Part shown: positions 28,260 to 55,573 of the stretch, in pieces
How the letters are laid out: each line of letters opens with the position of its first letter
Position numbering within the stretch: the first letter of the stretch is position 1
Source: an uncultured Bacteroidota bacterium
GTDB lineage: Bacteria; Bacteroidota; Bacteroidia; Bacteroidales; UBA12481
DNA length: 61,634 bases
Assembly (NCBI GenBank): GCA_903919065.1
Contig: CAIXHD010000293.1
Span: forward strand, 1 to 61,634
Direction: 5' to 3'
Notes under the pieces: model-generated
The model's database searches: none
Told to the model about the DNA's origin: nothing
What the model saw: the letters and a program-made list of their open reading frames with translations, nothing else
Program-made: the position numbers and the translations under genes

Positions 28260-28266
28260 CGAGTTA

Positions 28267-31595: not shown

Positions 31596-31750
31596 AACCC
31601 GACATCCTAATGCAGTGCATCCCGTTCGGAGTCAGATTCTGCCTTTCTATTGATAAAATATGCCCGTTGGTTGGAATTTAAAAAAGCCTTCCGCATTTAT
31701 TTTGATATTTGAGCTGTTATCCGGATAGCTAAAAAAATAAACATCACTAA

Positions 31751-32422: not shown

Positions 32423-32433
32423 GGCAAATCCGT

Positions 32434-33777: not shown

Positions 33778-33779
33778 TC

Positions 33780-34987: not shown

Positions 34988-35654
34988 TTCGGATATTTTG
35001 ACCGGATTCATCCAGGTTGCCGATCAGGGCATTGAGGCAGTAAAATTTCTCAATATTAAAATTCTGAATCCAACGGATTTCTACAACCTGATATTAAGGT
35101 TTGCTTTCAATATGCTGGCGACAGTAATTCTGGTCAGGTTTCTATATTATCCACATTCCAAAAGAAAAGACTACTTCTTCATTTTCATGATCTTCAGCAC
35201 TATAGTTTTTCTGCTGTGCTTTTTACTTGGAAAGGTTTCTGTCCAGATGGGGTTTGCACTCGGCCTTTTTGCCATATTCGGAATACTGAGGTACCGGACC
35301 GATACCATACCCATCAAGGAAATGACTTACCTGTTTCTGATGGTTGGAACTTCGGTGATCAATTCACTATCTGACAAAACTGTAAGCTGGGCTGAACTGG
35401 TATTCGCCAATGCAATAATCATTTTGATTACCTGGTATCTCGAACGGGTATGGATGCAGAAGAAGGAGGGTTTTATGGATATCCGATATGAGAAAATCGA
35501 ACTCATCCACCCTTCGCGCCGTGAAGAATTAATGGAGGATCTGAAAAAACGAACGGGCCTGAATGTTTACCGTATAAGCATCGACCGGGTAAATTTCATG
35601 AAGGATACTGCACGGGTTAGAATATTTTATCGCGAGGATGTGCCAGAAATCTGA
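34962..35654 (+). CDS. DUF4956-like polytopic membrane protein
   Basis: Overlaps the VTC gene end by 26 nt (or starts at the MQLFNS Met at 34974). Four to five TM helices followed by a ~70-aa soluble tail. The pairing with VTC and CotH matches an arrangement I recall as recurrent. Confidence 0.6.
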   Translation: MNQIMQLFNSDILTGFIQVADQGIEAVKFLNIKILNPTDFYNLILRFAFNMLATVILVRFLYYPHSKRKDYFFIFMIFSTIVFLLCFLLGKVSVQMGFALGLFAIFGILRYRTDTIPIKEMTYLFLMVGTSVINSLSDKTVSWAELVFANAIIILITWYLERVWMQKKEGFMDIRYEKIELIHPSRREELMEDLKKRTGLNVYRISIDRVNFMKDTARVRIFYREDVPEI

Positions 35655-35696
35655 CTGAATGTCGTCAAACAGGATAAATGACACAATCACCTCTAT

Positions 35697-37967: not shown

Positions 37968-37980
37968 ATCGATTTCAGTT

Positions 37981-39777
37981 ATGAAAAGGATTCTTCTGAT
38001 TTCAGCAATTTTGGTTGCTGCAGTTTCATCTTATTCACAGGAGTGCTTTTATATCCCTACCGAAACACGCTTCTGGGATTCATCAAAGGCATGTAACGGC
38101 TATACCCTTTTCGGGTCGGGCGGCACCACCTACCTGATCGACATGGAGGGGCATGTGGTCCATACCTGGCGGATTGGCACCAACCCACGCTTTACCGATA
38201 ACGGCACCCTGCTGGATGCGGTTGGAGGTAATCCCAGCAATCAGAATCAATGGAAAGAGCTCGACTGGAACGGAAACACAGTCTGGCAGTATACCGAATC
38301 GCGATCAGGATATTATCCGCATCATGATTTTGTAAAGATCTATAATCCGAAATTAAAGGACTCAACGTTCATGTATATCGCCAACCGGGATATCACATCA
38401 GCCCAGTGTCTGGAAGCGGGCTGCGATCCCGCCAATAATTATACCGGTGCCCAGATGGATGCCGTTGTTGAGGTTGACCGCTCAGGTAATGTTATCTGGG
38501 AATGGTGGTTCTTCAACCATGTCGTGCAGGACATAAATTCCGCAAAATCAACCTATGGAGTGGTTAAGGATAATCCTGGCAAAATCGACCTGAACATGCG
38601 GGGCAACCCGGTGAAGAGCGACTGGCTGCATTGTAATTCCATGGATTATAACCAGGATCTGGATCTTGTGGTAGTCAATTCCGTTCACGGTGAATTTTAT
38701 GTGATCGATCACGGCAACACGTTTATTGCCGGCAAACCCGACAGTTCCATTACTCTGGCGGCATCAACAAAAGGTGATTTCCTTTATCGGTTCGGCGATC
38801 CGGCAAAATATGATCAGGGAGATCCGCCATCGGTGCTGGACAACTGGGAAAAGGCTACCTCGGGACATAAGCAGATGGGTGGCGCGCATAATATCCAGTG
38901 GATTAAATCCGGATTGCCCGGTGCCGGCAATTTCATGGTATTCAATAATGGGCAAAATCTTTTCGAGCTCACCCCGCAGTCCTATATTTATGAGATCAAT
39001 CCTTACATGAACTCCGCGGGGACCAATACCGGCAAATTCGTGAATCCGCCAACGGCGGGCTATAACATCGTGAACTCGCCCGACCGCAATCTGATGAAAG
39101 AAAAGAAAAATGTATCGAAACAAATTGTCTGGAGATATTCCAGCAAGAACAACACCTCATTTTTCAGCACGATCGGATCCGGCACTCAGCGCCTGCCCAA
39201 TGGGAATACTTTTATCTGCTCCATGAACGACGGCCATTTCTTTGAAGTTTCACCTGCTGATACATCCATCGTTTGGGAATACATAAATCCCCTCACCCGT
39301 GATGGCAAGAAGAGAATCAAGGTTGATAATTATCCGACCTACAATGCAGCCTTCCGGGCTTACCGGTATACTGGTGATCATCCGGCGCTTAAGGATAAGG
39401 ATCTCACTGCAGGGGAAACCATTACCGGATTTGATCCGGATTACCTCACCCCGGGGGATATCACTTCCAGCGAGCCCGTGGGCGGATATGCTGCATCCGG
39501 AGGCGATCAGCTTGCACAGAACTATCCCAATCCATTTTCCTATAATACCAGCATCTCCTTTGACCTGGAAAACGGGAAGAGGGTGACTGTGGTAATTTAT
39601 GACCTATCCGGCAAGCAGGTAAAATCATTACTGAATCAGGCTTGCCCGGCCGGCACCTATAATCTCACCTGGGATGGCGCCAGTGATATTGGAAACCGCG
39701 TTCCGAACGGAATGTACTATTATATCCTGACCGCAGATAACCAAAAGATAAGCAAGAAGATGATCTACTCAAGATGA
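37981..39777 (+). CDS. arylsulfotransferase (ASST) family beta-propeller protein with T9SS CTD (paralog 1)
   Basis: Signal peptide. YTLFGSGGTTYLIDMEGHVVHTW, YYPHHD, DWLHCNSMDYN and GEFYVIDH. C-terminal NYPNPFSYNTSISF...GMYYYILTAD matches a T9SS CTD. Confidence 0.7.
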   Translation: MKRILLISAILVAAVSSYSQECFYIPTETRFWDSSKACNGYTLFGSGGTTYLIDMEGHVVHTWRIGTNPRFTDNGTLLDAVGGNPSNQNQWKELDWNGNTVWQYTESRSGYYPHHDFVKIYNPKLKDSTFMYIANRDITSAQCLEAGCDPANNYTGAQMDAVVEVDRSGNVIWEWWFFNHVVQDINSAKSTYGVVKDNPGKIDLNMRGNPVKSDWLHCNSMDYNQDLDLVVVNSVHGEFYVIDHGNTFIAGKPDSSITLAASTKGDFLYRFGDPAKYDQGDPPSVLDNWEKATSGHKQMGGAHNIQWIKSGLPGAGNFMVFNNGQNLFELTPQSYIYEINPYMNSAGTNTGKFVNPPTAGYNIVNSPDRNLMKEKKNVSKQIVWRYSSKNNTSFFSTIGSGTQRLPNGNTFICSMNDGHFFEVSPADTSIVWEYINPLTRDGKKRIKVDNYPTYNAAFRAYRYTGDHPALKDKDLTAGETITGFDPDYLTPGDITSSEPVGGYAASGGDQLAQNYPNPFSYNTSISFDLENGKRVTVVIYDLSGKQVKSLLNQACPAGTYNLTWDGASDIGNRVPNGMYYYILTADNQKISKKMIYSR

Positions 39778-39786
39778 TACAAAACC

Positions 39787-41469
39787 ATGAAAAATAAAGT
39801 AATTAAACTAAGTCTGGCGTTCATCGCATTATCGCTTTTAACAACGCCAATCCAAGCACAAACCCGAACCGTCGGTCTCTTTCTAAATGATACGGCCAAC
39901 GTTTACAAAGGGTACACCCTGTTTGCACCTAAACAATACACAGCCACCTACCTGATCAATAATGAGGGCCGGATGGTACACAAATGGACAGCAAGCCAGT
40001 ATCCTCCCGGTCAATCAGTTTACCTTCTCGAAAACGGGAATCTGCTGCGTACGTGCATGACCAAGGGTCAGCTCAGCAGCGGCGGCGGTGAAGGGGGCCG
40101 GATTGAGGAATACGACTGGAATGACAAACTGGTTTGGAGCCTGGATTTCTCCACCTCAACCTATATGCAGCACCATGATATCAAGCGGTTGCCCAATGGA
40201 AACATTATCATGCTGGTGATTGAGAAAAAGACCTATGCCGAATGTTTAGCGGCGGGTTTTGACCCATCGAAATTCCAACCGGAAATCCAGTCGAAGGGAA
40301 TGATGGTGCCCGATTATGTAGTCGAAATTAAACCTACCTACCCCACCGGAGGCACGGTAGTTTGGGAGTGGCACACCTGGGACCACCTGGTGCAGGACTT
40401 TGATGCTACCAAAACCAATTTCGGGTCGCCAAAATCAAGTCCTGAATTAATTGACTGTGATGGTGACGGAAGAAATCTTCCTGCATTCTGGAACCACATG
40501 AACTCCATCGATTACAATCCGGAATTTGATCAGATAGCCTTAAGCGTAAGGGGAAACAGTGAAGTTTGGATTATCGACCACAGCACCACAACTGCCGAAG
40601 CCAAAGGCCATACCGGCGGCAAGAGAGGAAAAGGCGGTGACCTTCTTTACCGCTGGGGAAATCCGATTACTTATGGTGCAGGTACTAAATCGGACCAGCG
40701 ATATTTTGAGCAGCACGATGTCGAATGGGTTTTGCCGGGCCGCCCCGGAGCAGGCAATATGACCTGCTTTAATAATGGTTTAGGCCGTGGAGGAAACATC
40801 ATTTATTCAACCGTTGATGAATTCACTCCGTCCGTGGATGCAAACGGAAATTACAGTCTGATTTCAGGATCAGCCTTTACTCCGAAGGATTTCACCTGGA
40901 CTTACCAGGGCACCACTGCAAATCCGATGTACTCCGAAAACATCTCAGGAGCCTACCGGCTGCCAAACGGTAATACAATATTATGTTCGGGCACAGTGGG
41001 TCTGTTTCTGGAAGTTACCCCTGCAAAACAAATTGTATGGAAATATATTTGTCCCGTTGATCAGTATGGTCCGATGATGCAAGGCTCAACACCGCTGGCA
41101 GATCCTGCCCGTACATCCGAAACCATGAATTCAGTTTTCAGGATTTACAAATATCCGCTTGATTATGCCGCATTTACCGGCCGGGATATGACCCCGGGGG
41201 ATTTTGTGGAAAAATATTCGACATCAGTGGATAACAGTGAAATTAATTCAAGAGATATTCAGGCATATCCGAACCCATTCTCCGGCAGGATATATCTGAG
41301 CGGACTTAATGGTGATGAGACTTACGATCTGTTTAATGTAAATGGAAAATCCTTCTGGTCGGGTAAAGAGATCGGCCAGAAGGATTTCTCAGAATTGATT
41401 CCGGGATTGTATTATCTGAAGGTTACCCAACAGAAATCAATCCGTGTTTTCAAGCTTATAAAGGAATAA
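39787..41469 (+). CDS. arylsulfotransferase (ASST) family beta-propeller protein with T9SS CTD (paralog 2)
   Basis: Signal peptide. GYTLFAPKQYTATYLINNEGRMVHKW, MQHHD, FWNHMNSIDYN and EVWIIDH. C-terminal AYPNPFSGRIYLSG...GLYYLKVTQ matches a T9SS CTD. Confidence 0.7.
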   Translation: MKNKVIKLSLAFIALSLLTTPIQAQTRTVGLFLNDTANVYKGYTLFAPKQYTATYLINNEGRMVHKWTASQYPPGQSVYLLENGNLLRTCMTKGQLSSGGGEGGRIEEYDWNDKLVWSLDFSTSTYMQHHDIKRLPNGNIIMLVIEKKTYAECLAAGFDPSKFQPEIQSKGMMVPDYVVEIKPTYPTGGTVVWEWHTWDHLVQDFDATKTNFGSPKSSPELIDCDGDGRNLPAFWNHMNSIDYNPEFDQIALSVRGNSEVWIIDHSTTTAEAKGHTGGKRGKGGDLLYRWGNPITYGAGTKSDQRYFEQHDVEWVLPGRPGAGNMTCFNNGLGRGGNIIYSTVDEFTPSVDANGNYSLISGSAFTPKDFTWTYQGTTANPMYSENISGAYRLPNGNTILCSGTVGLFLEVTPAKQIVWKYICPVDQYGPMMQGSTPLADPARTSETMNSVFRIYKYPLDYAAFTGRDMTPGDFVEKYSTSVDNSEINSRDIQAYPNPFSGRIYLSGLNGDETYDLFNVNGKSFWSGKEIGQKDFSELIPGLYYLKVTQQKSIRVFKLIKE

Positions 41470-41483
41470 CAGGTCTGATTCTT

Positions 41484-42188
41484 CTATTTAGATGAGAGCA
41501 CAAATCCGACTTTCACTTCGAAATAACTGTTAGCATCGAAAGTGTCGATATAATTATTTGCCTCAAAGTAAACGACATTTCCTTTTGCCAGGCGTTTTGA
41601 CAGCGAAACACTGATCCGGCTCATAAACCCGTCGTAGGTATTTGAAAATTCTCCATTGGCATCAGAATACTTCTCAGTTCCCATGTCAAAAACTAAAGCA
41701 TAACCGGGCATCAGTGCCCAGCCATCTTCGAGTTGGAATTTAACGCGGGAATCAAATCCGACTAAGCCATCGAGATAACCTTTATAATCTGTAGATAGTC
41801 CTGTACCAGAGCTGAGGTAAGAGTATTTGGAAAAGGCAAAGGTATTTATGCCCATAGTCAATCCAAAGTCAACGCCGATCGTTGGTGTTGCCTGCTTACG
41901 GATCGGCCACCAATTCAGGCAGACCATTAATCCTTTTGAACCTGCATTGTCAAGCAATAATCCTTCTGCATCTTTATCGTAGGCATCTGTATAGAAATTG
42001 GCCTCCAAATCAAGGACTCCTTTATAGGAATAACCCAGATTGGCCAGGTACCCTTTAAAACTGCGTCCTTGTTCATAGCCCAGATTTAGTCCGAATCCAC
42101 TTTTGCCCTTTTCAAGATAAGGAGAAATTTGTGCCACGGCCGGCAATGCCAGGCCAACGATGATGATGATTGCGAATAATTTTTTCAT
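41484..42188 (-). CDS. outer-membrane beta-barrel protein (hypothetical)
   Basis: Signal peptide MKKLFAIIIIVGLALPAVAQ. Alternating strand pattern. Terminal YFEVKVGFVLSSK. Confidence 0.5.
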   Translation of the reverse strand: MKKLFAIIIIVGLALPAVAQISPYLEKGKSGFGLNLGYEQGRSFKGYLANLGYSYKGVLDLEANFYTDAYDKDAEGLLLDNAGSKGLMVCLNWWPIRKQATPTIGVDFGLTMGINTFAFSKYSYLSSGTGLSTDYKGYLDGLVGFDSRVKFQLEDGWALMPGYALVFDMGTEKYSDANGEFSNTYDGFMSRISVSLSKRLAKGNVVYFEANNYIDTFDANSYFEVKVGFVLSSK

Positions 42189-42254
42189 GGTAGTTTGTAT
42201 TGGTTCTGAAATTTACAGAAATTCAATATCAACTACCTAAAAAAACTTCAACTT

Positions 42255-44159
42255 TTAGACCAATCTCGAGAACCGGGCATTTGATTTTGGAAAATCAACC
42301 CCCATGGCGAAAAAAGAAAGAAGTCCCAATATTATCGCGGCAACCGGAATTTCCCATCCGAATTTAGGGTGCACATCTACCACCTTCACCGGGATCATGG
42401 TGAAGCAAACCCCGATCAGTCCCGATGCTATGGCCGTCCACTGATAAAGATGGAGCCCGTCCAGAATGGGAGTTTGAACCTCTCCACGATAGGCCTCCTC
42501 CACAAAACGACCTATCCCGCTTAAAATCAGGTAAATTCCGAAAATAAAGGAATAGGGCATGCGACTCTGCCAGAGGGCCAGCATTACAAACCCCATCAAG
42601 AACAACCACACGATTGAGTAAAGCGGCGTGGGATGAATCAATTTTCCCTTCAGCCCCGACAGGCCACATACCCGGGTACGATCATGAAAATACCGGATTC
42701 CCAGACGGTCATCGTCCGTCGGCCGGCCATGACAGCATCCGTTTGCCAGGCAGCGAAACCGGCCGATTGCCTGCACCCAGGGCATCAGAACAGCTGCCAA
42801 TCCAATCATCAGCCAGACATTATACCCCATGAGCCATAAAATCAATCCGGCAAAAATGATTCCCACAATGGCCCCGTAATAACCGAAAGGACGTTTCAAT
42901 TTATCCGATCCTTCCACCAGCTGAGCCCAGACAGCAGAACAGACCATAAGCACCACTGCAAAAATCAAAATAGGCCATGCATATTCTCGCCCGGCCAGCC
43001 ATCCGGCGAACATGATTCCGAAAATGGCTCCAAATCCGATAATGAAAGCGTGGTTTATAATTCTCACGGGACCGAAAACCCACTCCTTCCAGGAGTTCGC
43101 CAACCTTTCCGCTAGATTTTTCAATTGTATCCAGATCCTCGAATAATTCACAGCCATAACATATATGGTCAGAGAAACCAGCAGATGGAGGTCGGACGAC
43201 CGACTATGAGCCAACTGAACAATGATCAGTAAAGCGACAAAGACAGTCAGGAGAATTCTGTATCGCTTAAACTGGCGGTCATAAGCGTTGTGAGAAAGAA
43301 GAATCAGGAAGAGCGGTATGCTCCCGAAAAGGAATGCCATTTTCTCCGGCACACTGCCAGCGAGGTCAATGGTGGTTAAATACTGTGCTCCGACAGACGG
43401 CCACAAAAGGGAAATGAAAAGCGATAGTCCCAGTCCAAACAATACCCTGATTGTCCATTCCTTTAATAAATCCTCTCTTTTCAGCAAAAAGGGAACCCCA
43501 ATCACAAATACCAGGCTGACAAAGCAAAGATTTCTATTTTCAAAAATCGAATGAAAATCCCATGCCTTACCCATCAATGGAGCAACTCCTCCCACCAGAA
43601 ATCCGGTTATGAAATTCCCTCCCACCAATATCAGAACCACAATGAACAGGGCAGGTAACCGGTCGGTCAAGCCAACCTCACGCATTTCTTCTCCGCCAAT
43701 ATCAAAGAAAGTCCTGATTTTCTGTCCGGGAAACCGTTGTTCCAGGCCTATCTTTTCATATCCCCATACCAGTGCAACCATGGACATAATGGTCACAGGC
43801 GTCACCAGCCATAATCCGCTGGCTGATCCTGCAGCAATTGACGTCCCGCAGACTGCTATACCAAAACCCCAGTATATTGGATGTCTGACGATGCGAAAAG
43901 GTCCTTCAGCAACCAGTTTTTTCGGTGGATAGGGATTCATCGGCAGTCCTTTGCCAAATCGGACAATGGTTAACATTCCCCAGATAATCAACACAACACC
44001 GATAATCAGGATACTGATTCCCACGGGTAAAGATTCTATCGGGGGAAACTTAATGAATGGAGCAGTGAGTTTTGCCCAAAACCAGAGCAATACAGGAATT
44101 ACTGCATTAAAAATCAGTGCATAAAGGACTTTCCCTAAAACTGGATTTATTTTTTTCAT
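42255..44159 (-). CDS. 634-aa polytopic fusion: ICMT/phospholipid-methyltransferase-like N-terminus + Lgt (prolipoprotein diacylglyceryl transferase)-like C-terminus
   Basis: N-terminal GPFRIVRHPIYWGFGIAV is the ICMT/PEMT-family motif. C-terminal GRFRCLANGCCHGRPT aligns to the Lgt signature GR-x-G-N-F-x-N-G-E-x-x-G, with Cys replacing N and E. More than 12 predicted TM helices. The start overlaps the upstream stop by 4 nt. Confidence 0.6.
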   Translation of the reverse strand: MKKINPVLGKVLYALIFNAVIPVLLWFWAKLTAPFIKFPPIESLPVGISILIIGVVLIIWGMLTIVRFGKGLPMNPYPPKKLVAEGPFRIVRHPIYWGFGIAVCGTSIAAGSASGLWLVTPVTIMSMVALVWGYEKIGLEQRFPGQKIRTFFDIGGEEMREVGLTDRLPALFIVVLILVGGNFITGFLVGGVAPLMGKAWDFHSIFENRNLCFVSLVFVIGVPFLLKREDLLKEWTIRVLFGLGLSLFISLLWPSVGAQYLTTIDLAGSVPEKMAFLFGSIPLFLILLSHNAYDRQFKRYRILLTVFVALLIIVQLAHSRSSDLHLLVSLTIYVMAVNYSRIWIQLKNLAERLANSWKEWVFGPVRIINHAFIIGFGAIFGIMFAGWLAGREYAWPILIFAVVLMVCSAVWAQLVEGSDKLKRPFGYYGAIVGIIFAGLILWLMGYNVWLMIGLAAVLMPWVQAIGRFRCLANGCCHGRPTDDDRLGIRYFHDRTRVCGLSGLKGKLIHPTPLYSIVWLFLMGFVMLALWQSRMPYSFIFGIYLILSGIGRFVEEAYRGEVQTPILDGLHLYQWTAIASGLIGVCFTMIPVKVVDVHPKFGWEIPVAAIILGLLSFFAMGVDFPKSNARFSRLV

Positions 44160-44920
44160 TTTCTGATACGCATTTTGAAGTAAAATATCAGCATGGAAAA
44201 AGCAAGAAATCCTGAGCCATATAATAAACTGCTGAGGGAGGCCGAGGTGCCTGAGTATTCAGTAAAAGAGGCGATAATAGCCGATTGTGACGGGAAATAG
44301 GCGGGTAACCAATGGATAATGGCCTGGTTTTGAGCTTCTGCATAAAAAATAGGATTCTGCAGCCATCCGGCATCAATATTCGCCAGTAAAACAATAAGAA
44401 GAATGGCTTCCAGCTCTCCTTCTATGAGACTGCCGACAGCAAGGCCGTAACCACCATAAACGAAACCGGTGAGGGCCAGGCTGAAGATCATCATTCCCAA
44501 ATGAGAAACATGAAAAAAGGTGCTTGTAATCAACCCCACATACACCGAGATCAGTACGATCATCAGGGTGAGGGCGAGAAGATTCGACAGGAGCAGCTCA
44601 AACGGATGATACCCGCACACGATCAGCCGCCGGTTAATTTTACTGTTCTTCTGGATGAGGTTCATTGCCAGAAATGACATCAGAAAACCGGCAACGGCAA
44701 CAGCAAAAAATACTAAGGCGATCTGCTTTTCGCTTGCAACCATAAAAATATTCCCGTCGAGCGAAGAAAGCCGGAACGGGACTTTTCGGTCGGGTGTTGT
44801 GAAGGCCACCACGGAAAAAAACACAACAGGAATAACAGCCAGAAGAATTAATACGATTCGGCGGCGAAGCTGCATCCGCAGAATCATTAATAAGCTGGTC
44901 ATTATTCTATTAATGCTCAT
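44156..44920 (-). CDS. ABC-2-type transporter permease
   Basis: 254 aa with six hydrophobic helices. 4-nt overlaps with both the ATPase gene upstream and the fusion gene downstream. Confidence 0.6.
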   Translation of the reverse strand: MSINRIMTSLLMILRMQLRRRIVLILLAVIPVVFFSVVAFTTPDRKVPFRLSSLDGNIFMVASEKQIALVFFAVAVAGFLMSFLAMNLIQKNSKINRRLIVCGYHPFELLLSNLLALTLMIVLISVYVGLITSTFFHVSHLGMMIFSLALTGFVYGGYGLAVGSLIEGELEAILLIVLLANIDAGWLQNPIFYAEAQNQAIIHWLPAYFPSQSAIIASFTEYSGTSASLSSLLYGSGFLAFSMLIFYFKMRIRK

Positions 44921-45516
44921 GTCAGGGTTCCGTCTTTCAGATTATGAATCTTGTCGAACCGATCTCTGTCATTCAACAGGTGTGTAACAACCAGAATGCT
45001 GCAACCCCGCTGCTTCATCTGTACGGTGAGATCCCAGAAACACAGGTAGGTTTCCCAGTCGAACCCGTTATAAGGCTCGTCGAGGATAAGAAGATCAGGC
45101 TGATGAAGTAAAGCAAGGGAGAGATTGAGCTTCTGGTGCGTTCCGCCGCTCAGGGTGCAAACTTTTTCTTTTCGGTATTGCCCGAAATTCAATTCCTCCA
45201 GCAACAATTCCCGCCGCTCCTGGAAATGGTGCCTGGTGAGGCCGTAAGCGGCAGCAAAATACTGAAAATGTTCATCAACAGTCAATTGGGGAAAAATCAG
45301 CGGATCCTGAGGGCAATAACCAATTTTCCCGTTGATCTGCAGATTTCCCTTGTCAGCTTTCCAAAGGCCGACAAGTATTTTTAAAAGAGTTGATTTTCCG
45401 GAGCCATTTTCACCGGCAATACCATTAATAGTTCCTTCCTCCATACTGAACGACACACCTTTCAGTACCATTTTCTTACCGAAAGACTTGATCATATTTT
45501 CAGCTTTCAGAATCAT
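44917..45516 (-). CDS. ABC transporter ATP-binding protein (short, 199 aa)
   Basis: Walker A GENGSGKST, signature LSGGTHQK, Walker B LLILDEP, H-loop VVTHL. Confidence 0.85.
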   Translation of the reverse strand: MILKAENMIKSFGKKMVLKGVSFSMEEGTINGIAGENGSGKSTLLKILVGLWKADKGNLQINGKIGYCPQDPLIFPQLTVDEHFQYFAAAYGLTRHHFQERRELLLEELNFGQYRKEKVCTLSGGTHQKLNLSLALLHQPDLLILDEPYNGFDWETYLCFWDLTVQMKQRGCSILVVTHLLNDRDRFDKIHNLKDGTLT

Positions 45517-45528
45517 GCAGTGTGTAGC

Positions 45529-46344
45529 TTAAAAAGTAACTAGCTCATGGATTGTCCAACCTAAGTTAATCATTTCTCCATCCTTTTCCAACTTCGAGCG
45601 GCTCAGCCACTTAGTCTCATCAGCCATAAAAAATTTAAGAGTCATGGATTTGTCGATTCCGGGCAGATATCGAATAAATTTTGCCATTAAATTCTTTACT
45701 CTTTTTTCCGATTCCAGGATTACACCTCGGTCTGTATAAAGCCTGATTCCTTTTCCCGGCAAGCGGATCAAATCATCGTCCACCAGGCTTTCATTGATTA
45801 ATTCCCCGTTGAGCCAGGTCCATTTCATTTCCGAATTCGTTTTCCACTGGATCCAGACCATGTTTTGACCCGGCAATGCATATCGACCCCATTGGAGCTT
45901 TTCGAGATTCAACTTCCATGGTGGCAGAGTAACTATCAATTGCTCCGCATAACCCGCGCCATCGATAATTCTTTTATTAATTTCCAGATGAGCAGATGCG
46001 GCTGGCTGACAGCAATTCCAATCGATATAACCCTCCTCTGATTCGAATAATCTGCAACCTATAGGCTTTGCCAATGTTTCCCACCTGCCGGATATACCAA
46101 GGCGGGAATCGCTCCAGGCTAATGAACCATCACTCTGTACAGGGAATTGCACCTGCCCTAATCTGGATTTATTCGTAACCCCTTTAACCGGCTCGTGATG
46201 GAGCCAGCTGGTATATTGAACTTCAAACCGGTGCCAAACCAACTTTGCAGCATAGAAAATCATCGCTTCTCCCTCGTCAGTTATACAGTCGAGGTACCAT
46301 TTCTCGAGATGAAATTTCTCCAGCCGGTCAGTATCAGGCTTCAT
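45529..46344 (-). CDS. hypothetical protein, tentatively of the CrtC/AttH-type lipocalin-like hydratase fold
   Basis: ATG at 46344 (MKPDTDRLEKF) overlaps the nrfD-like stop by 11 nt. EKWYLDCITDEGEAMIFYAAKL resembles the CrtC N-terminal W-Y-D...D-G motif. GAGYAEQLIVTLPPWKLNLEKLQWGRY resembles the CrtC G-GY...W-WGR region. The gene call is solid; the function is weak. Confidence 0.45.
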   Translation of the reverse strand: MKPDTDRLEKFHLEKWYLDCITDEGEAMIFYAAKLVWHRFEVQYTSWLHHEPVKGVTNKSRLGQVQFPVQSDGSLAWSDSRLGISGRWETLAKPIGCRLFESEEGYIDWNCCQPAASAHLEINKRIIDGAGYAEQLIVTLPPWKLNLEKLQWGRYALPGQNMVWIQWKTNSEMKWTWLNGELINESLVDDDLIRLPGKGIRLYTDRGVILESEKRVKNLMAKFIRYLPGIDKSMTLKFFMADETKWLSRSKLEKDGEMINLGWTIHELVTF

Positions 46345-47524
46345 GACGTTTCCATGGTGGCAGCAGCCAGAGCAGGAAAGCAAGAATCGTACATGGCAAA
46401 ATCAGCCATAAAGCAGCCATCATGATTCCTTCGGAACCAATCAGATTCAGTTTGAAGGTTGTAAAACCATAGAAACTTTTTGAAAACAGCTGACCGCCAA
46501 CGACCACGTTCCAGCGCATGAAAAAGATTCCGCAGAGCACGAGTATGCCCGTAATCATATACAAGCGTCGCTTCAGCTTGTCCCTGTTTTTTACAAATTG
46601 CAAAATAGCCAGAGTAATCATCGGCACAATCATTCCGAGGAACCATTGAAAAACAAATAACGTGTAGGTCAGCTTTCCTTTAACGAGTATATCGAGGATA
46701 TTAAAAGATTCCTCTGCTTCATAAATCCGGTGAACCTGATCAAGGCCTTCGAGTGCAAAGTCAAGGATGAGCGCAATAAGCAGATATTTACCGATCTCAT
46801 TCAGGCAGGCCATATCTATGACTTGTTTCCTGATATAATTCACGACCATGAATACAATCATTACCAGCGCAATACCGGATACCATAGCGGAGAACAGGAA
46901 GATCACCGGCATCAGCACCGTGGACCACCAGGGATTAGCTTTCACCGATCCGAAGATAAATCCGACATACCCATGGAGCAGAAAAGCCGATGGAATACCG
47001 ATTATCGTGACAAAATACCCCAGCTTATCATCCCATTTCACCGTCTCCTTCGAAATGTCGGTGACACCGAGAGTAAGAATCTTGTATACCCTTTTCATCA
47101 CGCCGGTTTTCTCCTGCGACCAGAGAACAATATCGCGGCGGTAATCGAGCCAGATTTCCAGCAGGAGCACGACCATCAGGTACCAGAGATAAACGAAGCC
47201 GAAGATTGCCATAGCTGAGGTCAGGTGAGGCGTGATCATGATCTCATAGAACCGCTGCGGCTGCGCCAGATGGCTGATCAGCGGCAATGTGGCGACCATC
47301 ATGAAGGAGAGTGCGGTAAGCAGTGCAATGGTGTATGTCGGTTTCAGGACTTTCACCTTGAAAACGCGTTCCAGTGAGGCCAGGATAAAGGCACCGGCAA
47401 CCAACCCTGTGATAAACGGGTACAATACAATTAATACGCTCCAGTTCAGCTCGATCTCATTTGGATAGATATAGCCATCGACTTTAGAGAGCATTTCATA
47501 AAGATGCTGCATTTGTGGTTCCAT
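46334..47524 (-). CDS. NrfD/PsrC-family polytopic quinol-interacting membrane subunit
   Basis: 396 aa with about ten TM helices and NrfD-like spacing. Its ATG directly abuts the stop of the FeS gene. Confidence 0.75.
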   Translation of the reverse strand: MEPQMQHLYEMLSKVDGYIYPNEIELNWSVLIVLYPFITGLVAGAFILASLERVFKVKVLKPTYTIALLTALSFMMVATLPLISHLAQPQRFYEIMITPHLTSAMAIFGFVYLWYLMVVLLLEIWLDYRRDIVLWSQEKTGVMKRVYKILTLGVTDISKETVKWDDKLGYFVTIIGIPSAFLLHGYVGFIFGSVKANPWWSTVLMPVIFLFSAMVSGIALVMIVFMVVNYIRKQVIDMACLNEIGKYLLIALILDFALEGLDQVHRIYEAEESFNILDILVKGKLTYTLFVFQWFLGMIVPMITLAILQFVKNRDKLKRRLYMITGILVLCGIFFMRWNVVVGGQLFSKSFYGFTTFKLNLIGSEGIMMAALWLILPCTILAFLLWLLPPWKRHEA

Positions 47525-48289
47525 TTATCTTACCTCCGCCCTTAGTTGGTTGTAATATACTTTCGGTTCCGTATTCATATGCGGTTTAAGTACCTGCCAT
47601 GAATGGTCCTTCATGAACTTAACAAGTTCGCTTTTGGGATCATTCAGATCGCCAAAGATTTTCGCCTCTTGCGGGCAAACCTCCACGCAAGCGGGTAATA
47701 ATCCTTTGGTGATTCTGTGGTAGCACATGGTGCATTTATCGACCACATGGGTTTCAGGATGAATATAGCGGCAACCGTAAGGACAGGCCTGAACGCAATA
47801 TCGGCAGCCCAGACAATAGGTTGGATCGACCAGTGAAAGACCTTCCGGGCTCTCAAATGTTGCCCCAACCGGACAAACCTGTGTGCAAGGGGATTTTACG
47901 CAATGATTGCACATTTTAGGAACAAAGAATGCCTTGAAGATATCCGTGTCGGGAAACTTCTGGGTAAATCCGTCGATTCCCCCATTTGGTGATTCCACAT
48001 GGATTGAACCATCATTCAGGATGGTATATTGCTCAACCCAGGTGCGGAAAAAGAAAGGATCGCGCGGAACATTGTTTTCCGTTTTGCAGGCATCGGCACA
48101 ACGACCGCAGCCAATGCACCTGTCCAGATCGATCCCCATACCGTACCATGGGCCTGTTTTACTTTTTCGTTCAGTTGCATAAAGCAATGATGCAAATGGA
48201 GTTGATCCTGCGGATATAAATAAGCCACCGGCTACCATGGCAGCCCGGCTTAAAAAGTCGCGTCTTGATTTTACTTCTTCTCTTGCCAT
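47525..48289 (-). CDS. Tat-exported 4Fe-4S ferredoxin-type subunit (NrfC/PsrB/DsrO-like)
   Basis: SRRDFLSRAAMVAGG is a Tat signal. Four Cys clusters: CIGCGRCADAC, CNHCVKSPCTQVCP, CLGCRYCVQACP and CTMC...ACVEVCP. Confidence 0.85.
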   Translation of the reverse strand: MAREEVKSRRDFLSRAAMVAGGLFISAGSTPFASLLYATERKSKTGPWYGMGIDLDRCIGCGRCADACKTENNVPRDPFFFRTWVEQYTILNDGSIHVESPNGGIDGFTQKFPDTDIFKAFFVPKMCNHCVKSPCTQVCPVGATFESPEGLSLVDPTYCLGCRYCVQACPYGCRYIHPETHVVDKCTMCYHRITKGLLPACVEVCPQEAKIFGDLNDPKSELVKFMKDHSWQVLKPHMNTEPKVYYNQLRAEVR

Positions 48290-48729
48290 GGACTGTGTGG
48301 ATTATGACATTTAGTACAGAGCTCACCTGCATTGTGTGCTTTCATATCGATCTGCTTGATATTCTCGGCCTTGCGGGCGAAATTTTTAGCATGACAGATC
48401 CCACAAAATTCCCGGCTATTGGGAACCTTGGGTGATATAACCACAGAATCAACTGAACTGATGTGGACACGACCTGCACCGTGGCAGGTTTCGCAGGACA
48501 AGGTTGCATGCTCATTTGCCACTTTCAGAGCCATCACATCATCATGACATTCATTACAAGCCTTCTGTCCGGAATATTCAGGAACCTTAACCTTGTTCTC
48601 TTCGAGAGCAAGACCTCGATAATGTCCGAATTCACCGAACGACTTTGGTGTCAGAAAATATTTCAGCGTCAGAAACAGTCCTATAAGCAGGACAAAGAGC
48701 AAAGCAAGCCGCTTAATTTGTGGAGGCAT
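48271..48729 (-). CDS. membrane-anchored tetraheme c-type cytochrome
   Basis: N-terminal TM helix LALLFVLLIGLFLTL. Four CxxCH motifs: CNECH, CETCH, CGICH and CTKCH. Overlaps the FeS gene start by 19 nt. Confidence 0.85.
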   Translation of the reverse strand: MPPQIKRLALLFVLLIGLFLTLKYFLTPKSFGEFGHYRGLALEENKVKVPEYSGQKACNECHDDVMALKVANEHATLSCETCHGAGRVHISSVDSVVISPKVPNSREFCGICHAKNFARKAENIKQIDMKAHNAGELCTKCHNPHSPWQEKK

Positions 48730-48808
48730 AGCTTAGGTTATTTAGGTAGGGGAAATATATATAATTATTTTCATAATTACATATACCTGTTCCTAAGCCG
48801 AAAAGATG

Positions 48809-49741
48809 CTAGCTGAAAAAATGATTTCCCTTTGGATTGTATATCATATTAAGTGCACCGGGAATCAGGCGGATATCAAATTTCTGGGCAAAATTCAATT
48901 CGCCATCAACATGAAAAGGAACCTTCTTGTCAAATTCAATGGCGATTTTATCCGTCTGATGGTAATCCACCTTCGGATCATTTATATGGGTGCCTTTCGG
49001 AACCTTAAGTAAGATATTGAAGCGTTGGAACAGATTCAGTTTTTTAACATTGCACACATCCAGCAGTCCATCATTGGCCATTGCCTTGGGTGTAATGAAA
49101 AAACTCCCGGCAAACCTCCGCCCGATAGCAACCGTATTCATGAAACAGGTAGAAGTGGTCCGTTTATTGCCGGAGATCAATGTCATCTGTTTCTCCTTGA
49201 AGAAAAGCAGGGTTTTAACAATATGCCATAGATATTTATACTGCCCCCCAAGCTTTACTTTACCGGGCTCGATATAATTTTCCGCGGCCACCTGTGCATC
49301 GAAACCAAGGCCCATACCATTCAGAAAATATTTACCATTGCATGAACCCACATCCATAGGTATGGTATGACATTCAAAAAAGGTTTTCCAGTGGGAATCA
49401 TCAAATCGGTTCGGGAATCCAAGAATCTGGATAAAATCGTTGCCTGTTCCGGCAGGTATGATACCCACGATAACATCTTTATTCCCGATCAGCGGACGTG
49501 AAATTTCATTTATCGTTCCATCGCCCCCAACCCCGATAATATATTTATAACCTTTTAAAGCGGCCAATTCAGAGAGCTCAGTAGCATGCCCCGAAAATTC
49601 AGTGTAGACAACATCCGCATCCACTCCGAATTTTTTGATCATTTCCTCAACCGTGGATTCATACTTTTTTGCAAAACCATTCCCGGCGATGGGGTTTACA
49701 ATAAACATCCATCTTCCATTTTCATTAGCTGTTTGAGTCAT
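48809..49741 (-). CDS. diacylglycerol/lipid kinase family protein (YegS/BmrU-like)
   Basis: FIVNPIAGNG and the GGDGTINE catalytic-domain motifs. 310 aa. Confidence 0.8.
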   Translation of the reverse strand: MTQTANENGRWMFIVNPIAGNGFAKKYESTVEEMIKKFGVDADVVYTEFSGHATELSELAALKGYKYIIGVGGDGTINEISRPLIGNKDVIVGIIPAGTGNDFIQILGFPNRFDDSHWKTFFECHTIPMDVGSCNGKYFLNGMGLGFDAQVAAENYIEPGKVKLGGQYKYLWHIVKTLLFFKEKQMTLISGNKRTTSTCFMNTVAIGRRFAGSFFITPKAMANDGLLDVCNVKKLNLFQRFNILLKVPKGTHINDPKVDYHQTDKIAIEFDKKVPFHVDGELNFAQKFDIRLIPGALNMIYNPKGNHFFS

Positions 49742-50496
49742 CAGTATGCTGGTTTATTTTTTTTGGATTCGGTATAGGCTGATTCAATAACCACTTTCAC
49801 CCTATTCAGGATTGCATGGTCGTCATCTTCTGCAAACTCCTCCCACTCAATGGGTTTGTGGATAATTACCTCCACTTTCGATTCAAAATTGATGGTAAAC
49901 CTGTTTTTGGGTTTCAGCAAAAAGAAACCATTCAGGGTAACCGGCAAAACGCTCATTTCGGTGGCCTTAAGTATATGCACAAATCCCTTATGGAACCGGT
50001 TGATATTTCCATCTGCGGTGCGGGTACCTTCGGGAAAAATGGCGATTGTCTGTGTACCCGACTTATTGAGCAGGTGACTGAGCATCTCCTTTGTATTACG
50101 CAGATCGCCGCTTTTCATTGGTACATAATGGGTAAGCTTCAGCACCCGGCCAAAGAGAGGAACCTTTAGCAAACGCTCACGGCCAAACCAGGATACCCCG
50201 GGATAAAAGGCCAGGATAGCCATAATGTCGAAAAGACTGGCATGGTTAGCAAGAAGAATATAATTCTTGCCCTTTTCGATATTCTCCAATCCTCTAATCC
50301 GGAGGCGCTTGCCCAGCATCAGAAAGATTGTCCGGGCCCAGAATCTCATGAGCCCCCTTACCGCCTTTTGCCAATTAAGAGATGCGACCACCAGGATCAT
50401 CAGCACACATATCGCGGTAAACAGGTATAAGAAGAAAAATACGGCCACAGAAATAGCCCCATAAAGATGTGCATGACGGATGGTTTTCTTTTGCAT
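49741..50496 (-). CDS. plsC: 1-acyl-sn-glycerol-3-phosphate acyltransferase family protein
   Basis: N-terminal TM helix. HX4D motif NHASLFD. FPEGTR motif. Its stop overlaps the lipid-kinase start (TGATG). Confidence 0.8.
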   Translation of the reverse strand: MQKKTIRHAHLYGAISVAVFFFLYLFTAICVLMILVVASLNWQKAVRGLMRFWARTIFLMLGKRLRIRGLENIEKGKNYILLANHASLFDIMAILAFYPGVSWFGRERLLKVPLFGRVLKLTHYVPMKSGDLRNTKEMLSHLLNKSGTQTIAIFPEGTRTADGNINRFHKGFVHILKATEMSVLPVTLNGFFLLKPKNRFTINFESKVEVIIHKPIEWEEFAEDDDHAILNRVKVVIESAYTESKKNKPAY

Positions 50497-50552
50497 ATTC
50501 TTTCCTTCCCCGCCGGAAAATTAAGCAAAAGAAAATTCAATAGCCAATCAAA

Positions 50553-51239
50553 TCACTGATTTTTAATACATCTGACCGAGAAACCGCTGGTCTTTGTGTA
50601 TTTCCAGCGATAGATTCCCTCGGCATGATAGATCATTGCCCGGCCCAAAGCGTGGGTTTCATCGGTATAGGTAGAGGTCCAGAAACTGGTAAGATCGCCG
50701 ATAAAACTATAAGTACCCTGTTCAAAAATACCGGATGGGATAGCGCTGAAACGGACTGTATTTTCTCCCGTGCCCCCGGAGTTCCATCCTTTTTTTGCCT
50801 TGAGGGCGATGGCCGCAGCACCGGTAATCCGCCAACCCAGACTGTCAGCATCGGAAGCTGTCATTCCCGCAAAGATTTCCAGCGTTTTCCATTCACCATC
50901 AGAAGGCAGATGCCATCCAACCGGACAGGCCTTCATGGCATTTTCCCAGCTATAGAGGCGCCCGTAAGTATCGCAATTCGCTTCAGCTGCATTATAACAC
51001 CACCATCCCGTGCTATCGGTCACATTATACCGCAGGTTTTCCGCCATCCACGTTTGGGTGCCAATATTAACAAAGGCATATTCCTTATCATCGCGGGTAT
51101 CCGTGAAATGCCCGTCGACGTCGGTGAGGGGCTCTATCTTGTTGCACGACGCGAGCAAAAGGGAAATCAGGAGGATCAAAGCAGATCGTGACACGAAACA
51201 CGAAACACGTGACAGTTGACGGGTGACATTGATATTCAT
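50553..51239 (-). CDS. FISUMP domain lipoprotein
   Basis: The internal ATG at 51239 gives MNINVTRQL...LLISLLLASC (lipobox). GTQTWMAENLRY, YGRLYSW, CPVGWHLPSDGEW, FSAIPSG and SVRCIKNQ. Confidence 0.8.
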   Translation of the reverse strand: MNINVTRQLSRVSCFVSRSALILLISLLLASCNKIEPLTDVDGHFTDTRDDKEYAFVNIGTQTWMAENLRYNVTDSTGWWCYNAAEANCDTYGRLYSWENAMKACPVGWHLPSDGEWKTLEIFAGMTASDADSLGWRITGAAAIALKAKKGWNSGGTGENTVRFSAIPSGIFEQGTYSFIGDLTSFWTSTYTDETHALGRAMIYHAEGIYRWKYTKTSGFSVRCIKNQ

Positions 51240-51287
51240 GGTGCAAAGGTAACGTTTCTGCGTGTCTGTGAGTATCCGTTGCTTTTG

Positions 51288-51295
51288 TATATTTG
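51288..51295 (+). promoter_or_regulatory. Bacteroidota -7 promoter motif (TAnnTTTG)
   Basis: TATATTTG lies upstream of the URO-D-family gene, 58 nt before the ATG at 51353. Confidence 0.3.
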
Positions 51296-51352
51296 GGAAA
51301 CTAATCCCTGAATATGGAACGCACCGCAAATTGCCTGATAAAATTAGATAGG

Positions 51353-52480
51353 ATGAATAAAACCCTCCGCCATGAGGAGGCTGATCGGGTACCTGTAAGC
51401 GACCTGTTTTGGGGAAGCTTTCTGGAGCGGTGGCGTCAGGAGCTTAATCTGCCGGCAGATGCATCGCCCTATGATTATTACGACCTCGACTGGCAGGTCA
51501 CCGTGCCGAATATGGATCCTCACATCATGCCGTTTGAGGTGATTGAGGAAACCGATGAACGCATTACGGTGAAAACAGGATTTGAAGCCATCATCACCAA
51601 GATATTTGTCGACCCGATGCCCCGTTTCGATCGGTTTCTGACCAATGAGATAGAAATGCTGAAAGATTTCAAATTCGACGATCCATGGGATGACCGAAGG
51701 TATTTCAGCGCCGGCGATAACCAGTTAGGCGGCATGGGCGATGGTTTTTCGAGGAATACCCCGGCCTGGATCGAGACTGTAAAATCGATCTGGCCAAACT
51801 TTCCGGTTTATGGCAGCGTTTGCGAAGGTCACGAAACCCTCTGGCGCATAATCGGTTCCGAAAACACTCTGTTATGGAGCCTCATGTATCCGGATGAAAT
51901 GGGCGCATTCATTGCCCGGATCAACAATTTTATGCTCGAAATTACCAAGGCACAGATAAAAGCCGCCAACGGATTGCTGGATGGTATGGTAATCTGGGGT
52001 GATGTAGCCTATACTTACGACCTGCTCTTCTCCCCTGAATTCTGGCGCGAGCACTTCAAGCCTGGCATCAAAGCGATGGTGGATGTTTGTCACGAGGCAG
52101 GCATTCCGGTCATATACCATGGTTGCGGCAACGTGAAAAGAATATTTGAAGATTTCATAGAAATTGGAGTTGACGCCTATAATCCGCTCGAGGCCAAAGC
52201 CGGACTGGATGTGGTTGAACTCCGCAACCAATATGGACACCGGATGGGTTTTTGCGGCAACATGAATGTTATGGAATGGGCCGACTGCACTCAGGATCAG
52301 CTTAAGGATATCGTTTTACGAAAACTCAATGCTGCCAAGGGAGGCGGTTTCATTTTCCAGTCGGACCACTCAGTTCCCAATACTGTTTCGGCAGCCAACT
52401 ATGATTACGTTGTCAAGCTCGTCAGGGAATACGGCGTTTACCCTCTGAAGCTCGGCTCCCACGACATTCAAATTACCTAA
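51353..52480 (+). CDS. uroporphyrinogen decarboxylase (URO-D) family protein, MtaA-like (second paralog)
   Basis: ATG at 51353 (MNKTLRHEEADRVPVSD). IWGDVAY, YHGCGN, DAYNPLE and FQSDHSVP are URO-D-family-like motifs. No signal peptide. Confidence 0.55.
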   Translation: MNKTLRHEEADRVPVSDLFWGSFLERWRQELNLPADASPYDYYDLDWQVTVPNMDPHIMPFEVIEETDERITVKTGFEAIITKIFVDPMPRFDRFLTNEIEMLKDFKFDDPWDDRRYFSAGDNQLGGMGDGFSRNTPAWIETVKSIWPNFPVYGSVCEGHETLWRIIGSENTLLWSLMYPDEMGAFIARINNFMLEITKAQIKAANGLLDGMVIWGDVAYTYDLLFSPEFWREHFKPGIKAMVDVCHEAGIPVIYHGCGNVKRIFEDFIEIGVDAYNPLEAKAGLDVVELRNQYGHRMGFCGNMNVMEWADCTQDQLKDIVLRKLNAAKGGGFIFQSDHSVPNTVSAANYDYVVKLVREYGVYPLKLGSHDIQIT

Positions 52481-55069: not shown

Positions 55070-55573
55070 TTATTCCTGCATAAATATTACCGAGAAAGTA
55101 CCGGAATAATTTCCGGCCGGAGCAACATTGAAACTCAGGGTACCTCCGATATTTACCCCGGTATATTCACCCATGGCTACAAACGGGGAAACCGGATAAG
55201 GAGTACCCAGAGTCAGGGTTAGAATAGCACCTCCCGGTCCAGTTAATTCAGCAGGTATTCCGGTATCGATGTGGATAAAGGTGCCTGGTAATGCGGTAAC
55301 AATAAAAAGCGCAGCCGAAGCGCCACTGCCTATAAGATAAACATTTCCTGCGGTGGTGCGATTTCCATAAGTATCAACGGTAATGGTTTTCGCGCCATCT
55401 GCTCCAACACAAAAGCTGCCAAATTCCAGACTTTGCATAATGTATACCTTCACTGAAATCGGCTTCGGTGGTTTTTGCTGAGCCCGGGCAGGTGCATAGA
55501 ATACAAATGAACAAGCTATTATAATAAGAGGCACCAACAACCTCCGTATCGATTGTTGAGTTTGTCTATTCAT
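55070..55573 (-). CDS. DUF4402-like (spore-coat-protein-U/SCPU-like) secreted subunit
   Basis: Signal peptide ending ARAQQ. MQSLEFGSF...ITVDTYGNRTTAGNVYL...AALFIVTA...GGTLSFNVAPAGNYSGTFSVIFMQE fits the DUF4402/SCPU pattern. Its start overlaps the adhesin stop by 8 nt. Confidence 0.5.
   Translation of the reverse strand: MNRQTQQSIRRLLVPLIIIACSFVFYAPARAQQKPPKPISVKVYIMQSLEFGSFCVGADGAKTITVDTYGNRTTAGNVYLIGSGASAALFIVTALPGTFIHIDTGIPAELTGPGGAILTLTLGTPYPVSPFVAMGEYTGVNIGGTLSFNVAPAGNYSGTFSVIFMQE

Follow-up and report, generated by a model that had tools for sequence, protein, structure and literature searches.

An eight-gene operon of an uncultured Bacteroidota bacterium that likely juxtaposes an autonomous redox trio and a conserved AttH-like/PEMT–Lgt-like cassette

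We analyzed a 61,634-nt stretch of DNA from an uncultured Bacteroidota bacterium (contig CAIXHD010000293.1; "the window" hereafter denotes this whole stretch), focusing on a minus-strand gene cluster at 41484–48729 that places genes for a cytochrome c, an iron–sulfur (FeS) protein, and an NrfD-type membrane protein upstream of genes for a CrtC-like protein, an ABC-2-type transporter, a polytopic membrane protein, and an outer-membrane β-barrel protein. An initial annotation, made from the sequence alone, had proposed that the first three genes encode a quinone-linked redox module that drives the tailoring of a membrane lipid, isoprenoid, or lipoprotein, which the transporter and the barrel then export. 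All eight open reading frames (ORFs) lie at the coordinates given there, and they are listed here from the first to the last gene of the cluster:

48271..48729, minus strand: membrane-anchored tetraheme cytochrome c, 152 aa, first gene of the type-1 trio (CxxCH motifs; Cytochrome_C7 and Paired_CXXCH_1)
47525..48289, minus strand: NrfC/PsrB-type ferredoxin exported by twin-arginine translocation, 254 aa, with four [4Fe-4S] sites (SRRDFL motif; Fer4_11, E 2.7e-24)
46334..47524, minus strand: NrfD/PsrC-family quinone-interacting membrane subunit, 396 aa (PF03916, E 8e-39)
45529..46344, minus strand: protein with a predicted AttH/CrtC double-barrel fold, cytoplasmic, 271 aa, first cassette gene (AlphaFold model; no signal peptide)
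44917..45516, minus strand: ABC transporter ATPase, 199 aa (ABC_tran, E 1.6e-29, 103.7 bits)
44156..44920, minus strand: ABC-2-type permease, 254 aa (ABC2_membrane_3, a marginal 32.3 bits against a cut-off of 31.6)
42255..44159, minus strand: polytopic fusion protein, 634 aa, with ICMT/PEMT-like, degenerate PAP2-like, and Lgt-like regions (Pfam PEMT at residues 46–131, LGT at 363–588)
41484..42188, minus strand: outer-membrane β-barrel protein with signal peptide, 234 aa (AlphaFold model with a predicted local distance difference test score, pLDDT, of 83.5)

The first three genes are referred to as the trio and genes four to seven as the cassette. The cytochrome c and FeS protein genes overlap by 19 nt, the stop codon of the latter abuts the start codon of the NrfD gene, the NrfD gene overlaps the gene of the 271-aa protein by 11 nt, and the ABC ATPase gene follows after a gap of 12 nt. 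The permease gene overlaps both the ATPase gene and the gene of the 634-aa protein by 4 nt, and 66 nt separate the latter from the barrel gene. With the ORF coordinates, the family scans, and these junction lengths, the genes, domain calls, and junctions of the initial annotation were all confirmed. The eight-gene cluster is almost certainly co-transcribed. There was no convincing terminator between the operon genes, and an Rfam scan of 41000–52500 gave no match. Sigma-70 promoter-like sites numbered 16 in comparison to 17.4 in shuffled sequences, which, with a model unsuited to Bacteroidota, neither supported nor split the operon.

The cytochrome of the trio carries four CxxCH motifs (CNECH, CETCH, CGICH, and CTKCH) behind a hydrophobic anchor at the N-terminus. 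The solved structures nearest to the FeS protein are PsrB (2vpw, E 1.6e-46) and ArrB (6cz7). The third protein belongs to the NrfD family, as it scored 134.5 bits with PF03916 at a cut-off of 25.8; a phmmer search of the PDB with this protein gave no match. The NCBIfam equivalog models for related complexes all stayed below their cut-offs, namely NrfC with the FeS protein (161 versus 377.6), NrfD (60.8 versus 347.6), DsrO (185 versus 200), DsrP (28.6 versus 350), and TtrB (201.5 versus 416), and neither nrfA nor dsrMK nor ttrA was found near the trio in the window. As the Nrf, Dsr, and Ttr equivalog scores all failed in this way, the trio was classified as Cbc4/Nhc-like, and it has the architecture of that type: an anchored multiheme cytochrome, a protein with four [4Fe-4S] clusters, and an NrfD-like subunit, without a molybdopterin or other catalytic gene.

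Cbc4 of Geobacter sulfurreducens consists of the anchored tetraheme cytochrome CbcS, the four-[4Fe-4S] protein CbcT, and the integral membrane protein CbcU, and a role in passing electrons from menaquinol to partners in the periplasm has been proposed for it (bioRxiv 10.1101/2025.04.14.648717). Desulfovibrio NhcABCD is listed among the NrfD complexes and likewise has no catalytic subunit (PMC8076601). The trio shares with Cbc4 the anchored tetraheme cytochrome c, the four-[4Fe-4S] protein, the integral membrane subunit, and the lack of a catalytic subunit, whereas the hosts differ, as Cbc4 belongs to a metal reducer and the trio to a Bacteroidales-type host whose proteins have type IX secretion system (T9SS) tails; the likeness to Cbc4 refers to subunit architecture. 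With Nhc, DsrJOP, and NrfBCD, the trio has in common a periplasmic cytochrome c, an NrfC-type ferredoxin, and an NrfD-type quinone subunit, but in contrast to the Nhc, Dsr, and Nrf systems, it comes without NhcD, DsrMK, or NrfA. The heme counts differ as well, with nine in NhcA, five in NrfB, three in DsrJ, and four in the cytochrome of the window. Judged by its subunit make-up, the trio would function like Cbc4 and Nhc.

A homolog search with NrfD returned at least 8000 matches, the best 120 of which were all at least 71% identical, and those among these 120 that carried a source name came from Bacteroidales or other Bacteroidota. Twelve loci with a type-1 trio, reached via NrfD similarity (71–96% identity), served as the trio-side sample. 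Stand-alone trios of identical gene content were present in Maribellus mangrovi (L089) and in the loci L090, L092, and L096–L100 of metagenome-assembled genomes. In L089, L090, and L092, the three proteins have 151–152, 254–256, and 391–402 aa, and the 19-nt overlap is kept. The stand-alone trios adjoin unrelated genes, such as those for DUF2339 and methylmalonyl-CoA mutase, GFO_IDH, a mechanosensitive channel, or MarR and an RND efflux system, and no conserved fourth gene accompanies them in any of these loci. By its gene content, the trio is thus a predicted autonomous three-gene electron-transfer unit that occurs as a widespread stand-alone operon in Bacteroidales. The view that such a trio normally serves a dedicated catalytic partner, which had made the present case look unusual, is not supported in the light of these trios and of Cbc4 and NhcABCD.

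The 271-aa protein had no match in Pfam-A or NCBIfam, and neither had 21 members of its family, even at E 10, so that no sequence model places it in the CrtC/AttH family. Its AlphaFold model (pLDDT 90.2), however, matched AttH NE1406 (2ich), kievitone hydratase (7a0t), and the pericyclases Fsa2, CghA, and Phm7 with template-modeling scores of 0.5–0.57, a probability of 1.00, and Foldseek E values of 6e-9 to 5e-7. The predicted double lipocalin-like β-barrel fold thus assigns it to the CrtC/AttH superfamily, and the original label "CrtC-like" is justified at the level of fold, not at the level of sequence. We term the protein AttH-like; its family comprises 1288 representatives at 50% identity. 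The double β-barrel is shared with AttH, CrtC, kievitone hydratase, and Fsa2/CghA, whose characterized members act on prenyl or polyene substrates. In contrast to these relatives, the AttH-like protein is shorter (about 270 versus 320–375 aa), has no signal peptide, and has a PEMT/Lgt-like membrane protein as its obligatory partner.

The next two genes of the cassette encode an ABC-2 exporter, as an ABC_tran ATPase stands beside an ABC2_membrane permease, the score of the latter being marginal. In most cassette loci of Bacteroidota, this position is taken by an ortholog of the ATPase with 54–84% identity. The N-terminal part of the 634-aa protein belongs to the ICMT/PEMT family (PEMT, 42.9 bits at a cut-off of 25). 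In an alignment of 24 sequences of the 634-aa family, H93-P94-I95-Y96 and G98 of its RHPIYxG motif are invariant, and the family profile gave a weak match to the ICMT structure Ma-ICMT (4a2n) that spans the RHPxYxG motif; phmmer searches of the PDB with the full protein and with its C-terminal domain gave no match. The middle region (residues ~150–340) has intact PAP2 motifs (PSFH...TGMHxxxD) with a PAP2_3 match in 7 of the 24 homologs, mainly outside Bacteroidota. Homologs with the intact domain are those of Acidobacteriota, Chitinophaga, and others without an ABC pump. The window protein and its Bacteroidota relatives have lost these catalytic motifs, with IPLF... and SRSSDLH in their place, and PAP2_3 does not match there.

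The C-terminal domain of the 634-aa protein is Lgt-like (Pfam LGT, E 2.5e-20), and GRxRCxxNGCCHG, HPTxLYS, and GRFxEExYRGExQT are invariant in the 24-sequence alignment. The Lgt equivalog TIGR00544, in contrast, scored only 35.8 bits at a cut-off of 118.9. We also aligned the domain by hhalign with Escherichia coli Lgt, as a lead rather than as a curated comparison. In this alignment, R143, G154, R239, E243, R246, and a HPSQLY-like motif are kept, whereas N146 and E151 are replaced by the invariant cysteines of GRxRCxxNGCCHG, and the Lgt signature GRxGNFxNxExxG, which includes N146 and E151, is therefore absent. The domain thus resembles Lgt in its Pfam match and in the aligned arginines and glutamate, and it differs by the cysteine-rich motif and by the fusion to PEMT/ICMT-like and PAP2-like regions. 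Because the equivalog cut-off was not reached, N146 and E151 are replaced, and the domain is part of this fusion, we do not regard it as a bona fide Lgt.

For the conservation of the cassette, homologs of the 271-aa protein were collected, 80 species-level genome loci were fetched, and the window proteins were mapped onto them. Counts concerning the downstream cassette genes refer to the 63 loci with sufficient downstream sequence, and the clustering of neighboring genes covered about 80 cassette loci. In 61 of the 63 loci, the AttH-like gene has a PEMT/LGT gene downstream of it on the same strand, and such loci occur in Bacteroidota, Acidobacteriota, Gemmatimonadota, Limnocylindrales, and Symbiobacterium, and thus in at least five phyla. 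Among the carriers of the cassette that can be cultivated are Flavilitoribacter nigricans, Flavobacterium chuncheonense, and Christiangramia crocea. The ABC ATPase and ABC-2 permease genes lie between the two in 40 of the 63, mostly in Bacteroidota. In addition, a metagenomic protein of 854 aa (P0318) unites an AttH-like region (3–259), PEMT (310–395), and LGT (647–807) in one chain, which supports a physical partnership of the AttH-like and PEMT/LGT proteins, although it is a single sequence and a sequencing artefact is possible. Going by this gene order, the genes of the 271-aa protein, the ABC-2 transporter, and the 634-aa protein are a genuine functional unit that has been conserved, with the AttH-like and PEMT/(PAP2)/Lgt-like proteins as its core pair, with or without the pump. 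A literature search for the combination of AttH with Lgt/PEMT found nothing relevant, and the cassette appears to be an undescribed conserved gene set.

Accessory genes beside the cassette point to its substrate. Directly 5' of it, 29 loci have a gene for a protein of about 284 aa (e.g., L001:8863-9738 and L005:9135-10004) that has no counterpart in the window. This protein is a divergent squalene/phytoene synthase (SQS/PSY), since PF00494 matched 12 of 19 members (best E 5.7e-7); it has the aspartate-rich DDxxD-like motifs YLDDVVDGD and DIEDFEADIAAGY, and weak profile matches to the structures of phytoene synthase and HpnC were found. The SQS/PSY-like gene in front of the cassette in these 29 loci ties the cassette to isoprenoid chemistry and makes a lipid or isoprenoid substrate probable. 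The fold matches of the 271-aa protein to hydratases and pericyclases with prenyl or polyene substrates count in the same direction, and we conclude that the cassette probably acts on a lipid or isoprenoid. In view of the conserved unit and its SQS/PSY-like neighbors, the part of the original proposal that saw genes four to seven as a lipid or isoprenoid modification and export system still stands. Two further accessory genes, both lacking in the window, are a radical S-adenosylmethionine (SAM)/SPASM gene beside the cassette in 13 loci, usually divergent and upstream (e.g., L008:8731-9798 on the minus strand), and a PF00685 sulfotransferase gene immediately 3' of the PEMT/LGT gene in 12 loci (e.g., L008:14080-15213 on the plus strand). 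In L008, an APS kinase gene is also found near the cassette. In this subgroup of cassettes, the radical SAM/SPASM, sulfotransferase, and APS kinase genes are suggestive of products that are sulfated or modified by radical chemistry. If the cassette product were identified, the function of a non-canonical Lgt-like domain and its invariant GCCHG motif would become known, and a novel lipid or terpenoid of the envelope of Bacteroidota and Acidobacteriota might come to light.

The last gene of the operon behaves differently. The 234-aa protein matched nothing in Pfam or NCBIfam, and the best structural matches of its model are OpcA, OmpG, and OmpT. Its homologs form only 6 clusters. A homolog with 64% identity lies among unrelated genes in L093, the genome of L007 has one about 46 kb away from the cassette (L094), and in L009 (14131-14442), the barrel gene is an internally deleted remnant that retains the signal peptide and the last 73 residues next to an intact trio and cassette. 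The barrel is a neighbor and not a conserved component of the cluster; of the exporting barrel that had been proposed, the predicted fold holds and the conserved role does not.

The key question is whether the trio and the cassette form one system. Counts concerning an upstream trio refer to the 65 loci that had at least 2.5 kb of sequence 5' of the AttH-like gene. A trio preceded the cassette in only 3 of these 65 loci, of the window type in L009 and L010 and of a paralogous type in L049, and, conversely, a cassette followed in only one of the 12 type-1 trio loci, namely L095, which belongs to the lineage of the window itself (NrfD 96% identical). The search for homologs of the 271-aa and 634-aa proteins beside NrfD, FeS, and cytochrome c genes, as suggested by the initial annotation, thus found them together in one narrow clade and not in any other locus sampled, and synteny of the whole cluster is not conserved outside that clade, which that annotation had itself named as speaking against a common system.

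Directly 5' of the operon, the window has a same-strand pair of lipid genes that had been overlooked, the second of which ends 79 nt before the cytochrome gene:

49741..50496, minus strand: PlsC-type acyltransferase (Pfam Acyltransferase, E 6e-22; NCBIfam AGP_acyltrn domain)
48809..49741, minus strand: YegS/DAGK-family lipid kinase (Pfam DAGK_cat and YegS_C; TIGR00147, 158.5 bits at a cut-off of 118.65)

This pair belongs to a neighborhood of URO-D, Fib_succ_major, acyltransferase, and DAGK genes that the compared loci have in common, and within which the two modules are distributed as follows:

Window, L006/L009/L095, and L010: trio present, cassette present
L007: trio absent, with DAGK overlapping the AttH-like gene; cassette present
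L091 (NrfD 89% identical): trio present; cassette absent, with response regulator and histidine kinase genes following

As L007 and L091 each hold only one module in the shared neighborhood, each module must have been gained or lost independently. The acyltransferase/DAGK pair is retained in L007, L091, L095, and L010 regardless of whether trio or cassette lies downstream, and the two genes are independent neighbors. Between the window and L006, the trio proteins are 87–96% and the cassette proteins 67–81% identical, with the AttH-like protein evolving fastest (67%). Horizontal transfer of the trio was considered and rejected, since conservation between the two is at a similar level for the flanking genes, with 91% for DAGK and 84% for the acyltransferase.

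Topology points in the same direction. As read from the sequences, the heme and FeS cofactors of the trio are exported to the periplasm, and a signal peptide is missing from the AttH-like protein. The SAM used by ICMT/PEMT-type domains is cytoplasmic. With periplasmic cofactors on the one hand and a cytoplasmic AttH-like protein and SAM-dependent domain on the other, a direct coupling is argued against. The link by which the redox module was thought to drive the tailoring therefore finds no support in the counts from either side or in the topology.

The closest relative by cassette proteins (79–90% identity) is L049, in which a paralogous trio lies 4 nt 5' of the AttH-like gene. This trio is only distantly related to that of the window (NrfD 19%, FeS protein 36%, and cytochrome 24% identity) and represents a second type, with proteins of 157–195, 296, and about 405 aa, that is widespread in Bacteroidales. 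We found type-2 trios at L049:36-2667, L090:10530-13303, L101:8275-10959, and L102:7255-9586, and in the latter three loci, they lie 1.3–2.3 kb downstream of a type-1 trio. As the two types are adjacent elsewhere, the arrangement of L049 needs no independent recruitment of a type-2 trio, which we consider disfavored for this reason. The L049 contig begins 35 nt before the cytochrome gene of its trio, and by analogy to these tandems, the simplest reading is an order of type-1 trio, type-2 trio, and cassette in L049, with the lineage of the window being without type 2. Two paralogous Cbc4-like trios that are widespread and often adjacent in Bacteroidales bear on how menaquinone is linked to periplasmic redox partners in these anaerobes.

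As a whole, the operon brings together modules of known kinds and is restricted to one clade, and in our view it is likely that the cluster is a lineage-specific assembly of independent modules, probably on one transcript, and not one conserved system. The first module (48729–46334) would be a complex that works by itself in electron exchange between quinone pool and periplasm, with electrons passing between menaquinol in NrfD and periplasmic partners via the FeS protein and the cytochrome, and no dedicated catalytic subunit would be involved. The second module (46344–42255) is the conserved four-gene cassette, built around the AttH/CrtC-fold protein and the polytopic PEMT/(PAP2)/Lgt-like enzyme. 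In this module, the cytoplasmic double-barrel protein may bind a hydrophobic lipid or isoprenoid, probably hydrate or rearrange it, and pass it to the membrane enzyme, whose ICMT/PEMT-like domain would methylate the substrate with SAM and whose Lgt-like domain, in which the phosphate-binding arginines of Lgt are kept, would transfer a group derived from a phospholipid or a prenyl phosphate. The ABC-2 pump could then move the product out of the inner membrane. The idea of a respiratory-powered lipid tailoring is thereby largely deflated and probably reflects an operon-fusion artefact.

Several points weigh against such an independence of the modules. The 11-nt overlap of the NrfD and AttH-like genes makes their co-transcription near-certain and a translational coupling possible. 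Four lineages, with AttH-like proteins that have drifted apart to 62–79% identity, retain the junction of trio and AttH-like gene. The paralogous trio at this position in L049 could reflect selection for a trio there, and we regard it as the chief argument for that rival view. The loci were sampled by sequence similarity and not exhaustively, and we infer the chemistry of the cassette from protein families and gene neighbors only.

As to that chemistry, it is improbable, in our assessment, that the cassette modifies a peptide or protein, in which case the Lgt-like domain would lipidate a cysteine, the ICMT-like domain would methylate a carboxyl group as in CaaX processing, the ABC-2 pump would export the resulting lipopeptide, and the trio would be unrelated. 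Proteins with cysteines are substrates of Lgt as well as of ICMT, peptide maturation is a frequent role of radical SAM/SPASM enzymes, and the respective gene adjoins the cassette in 13 loci while the sulfotransferase gene follows in 12, all of which would suit a peptide product. However, no gene of the size of a precursor peptide is found at the window's junctions of 12 nt and 4 nt, the most common accessory gene (29 loci) encodes the SQS/PSY-like isoprenoid synthase, and the AttH/CrtC-fold relatives of known chemistry take small hydrophobic molecules. Moreover, the Lgt-like domain does not reach the equivalog cut-off for Lgt, and N146 and E151 are no longer present in it.

We hold it to be quite improbable that the trio has been recruited to the cassette in this clade and supplies or removes electrons for the tailoring of a lipid or isoprenoid before its export. 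The overlap of the NrfD and AttH-like genes, the adjacency kept in the window, L006/L009/L095, and L010, and the non-orthologous trio at the same junction in L049 would agree with a recruitment, and the invariant C...CCH motif of the Lgt-like domain, which by analogy to Lgt would face the periplasm, could be redox-active or metal-binding. There is thus a slim chance that, in a narrow Bacteroidales clade, the Cbc4-like module has taken on a role in the cassette, for instance by oxidizing or reducing the Cys-Cys-His site of the Lgt-like domain or a lipid intermediate that faces the periplasm. In that case, the flow of respiratory electrons would be tied to the formation of a modified membrane lipid or isoprenoid and to its export, and the presence of either paralogous trio at the junction (window versus L049) would reflect selection for this coupling. 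Nevertheless, 62 of the 65 cassette loci have no trio and 11 of the 12 trio loci no cassette, and one or the other module is missing from the same neighborhood in L007 and L091. The cysteine motif does not vary among the homologs, of which by far the most have no trio, and the hemes and FeS clusters are periplasmic, in contrast to the cytoplasmic AttH-like protein and SAM-dependent domain. Given the tandem trios of L090, L101, and L102, the arrangement of L049 needs no recruitment of its own.

Apart from the operon and its lipid gene pair, the window has the following features. T9SS sorting domains occur on genes neighboring the operon and indicate a host from the Bacteroidota, and the plus-strand region 28186–41469 encodes predicted T9SS-secreted enzymes, namely two Metallophos phosphoesterases, a protein with Lcl_C and FGE-sulfatase domains, and two arylsulfotransferase (ASST)-like proteins. 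L006/L009 also have the genes for FGE-sulfatase and ASST in this place beside the cassette. At 31751–35654 on the plus strand, genes for a DUF2490/outer-membrane protein barrel, a CotH kinase, a VTC-domain protein, and a DUF4956 protein are grouped in what looks like a small polyphosphate- or CotH-related cluster. Two long ORFs lie on the minus strand at 55566–61601 (2011 aa) and 52477–55059 (860 aa); at the corresponding position, relatives have giant adhesin-like proteins with Ig_7, Calx-beta, and Choice_anch_L domains together with a DUF4402 protein.

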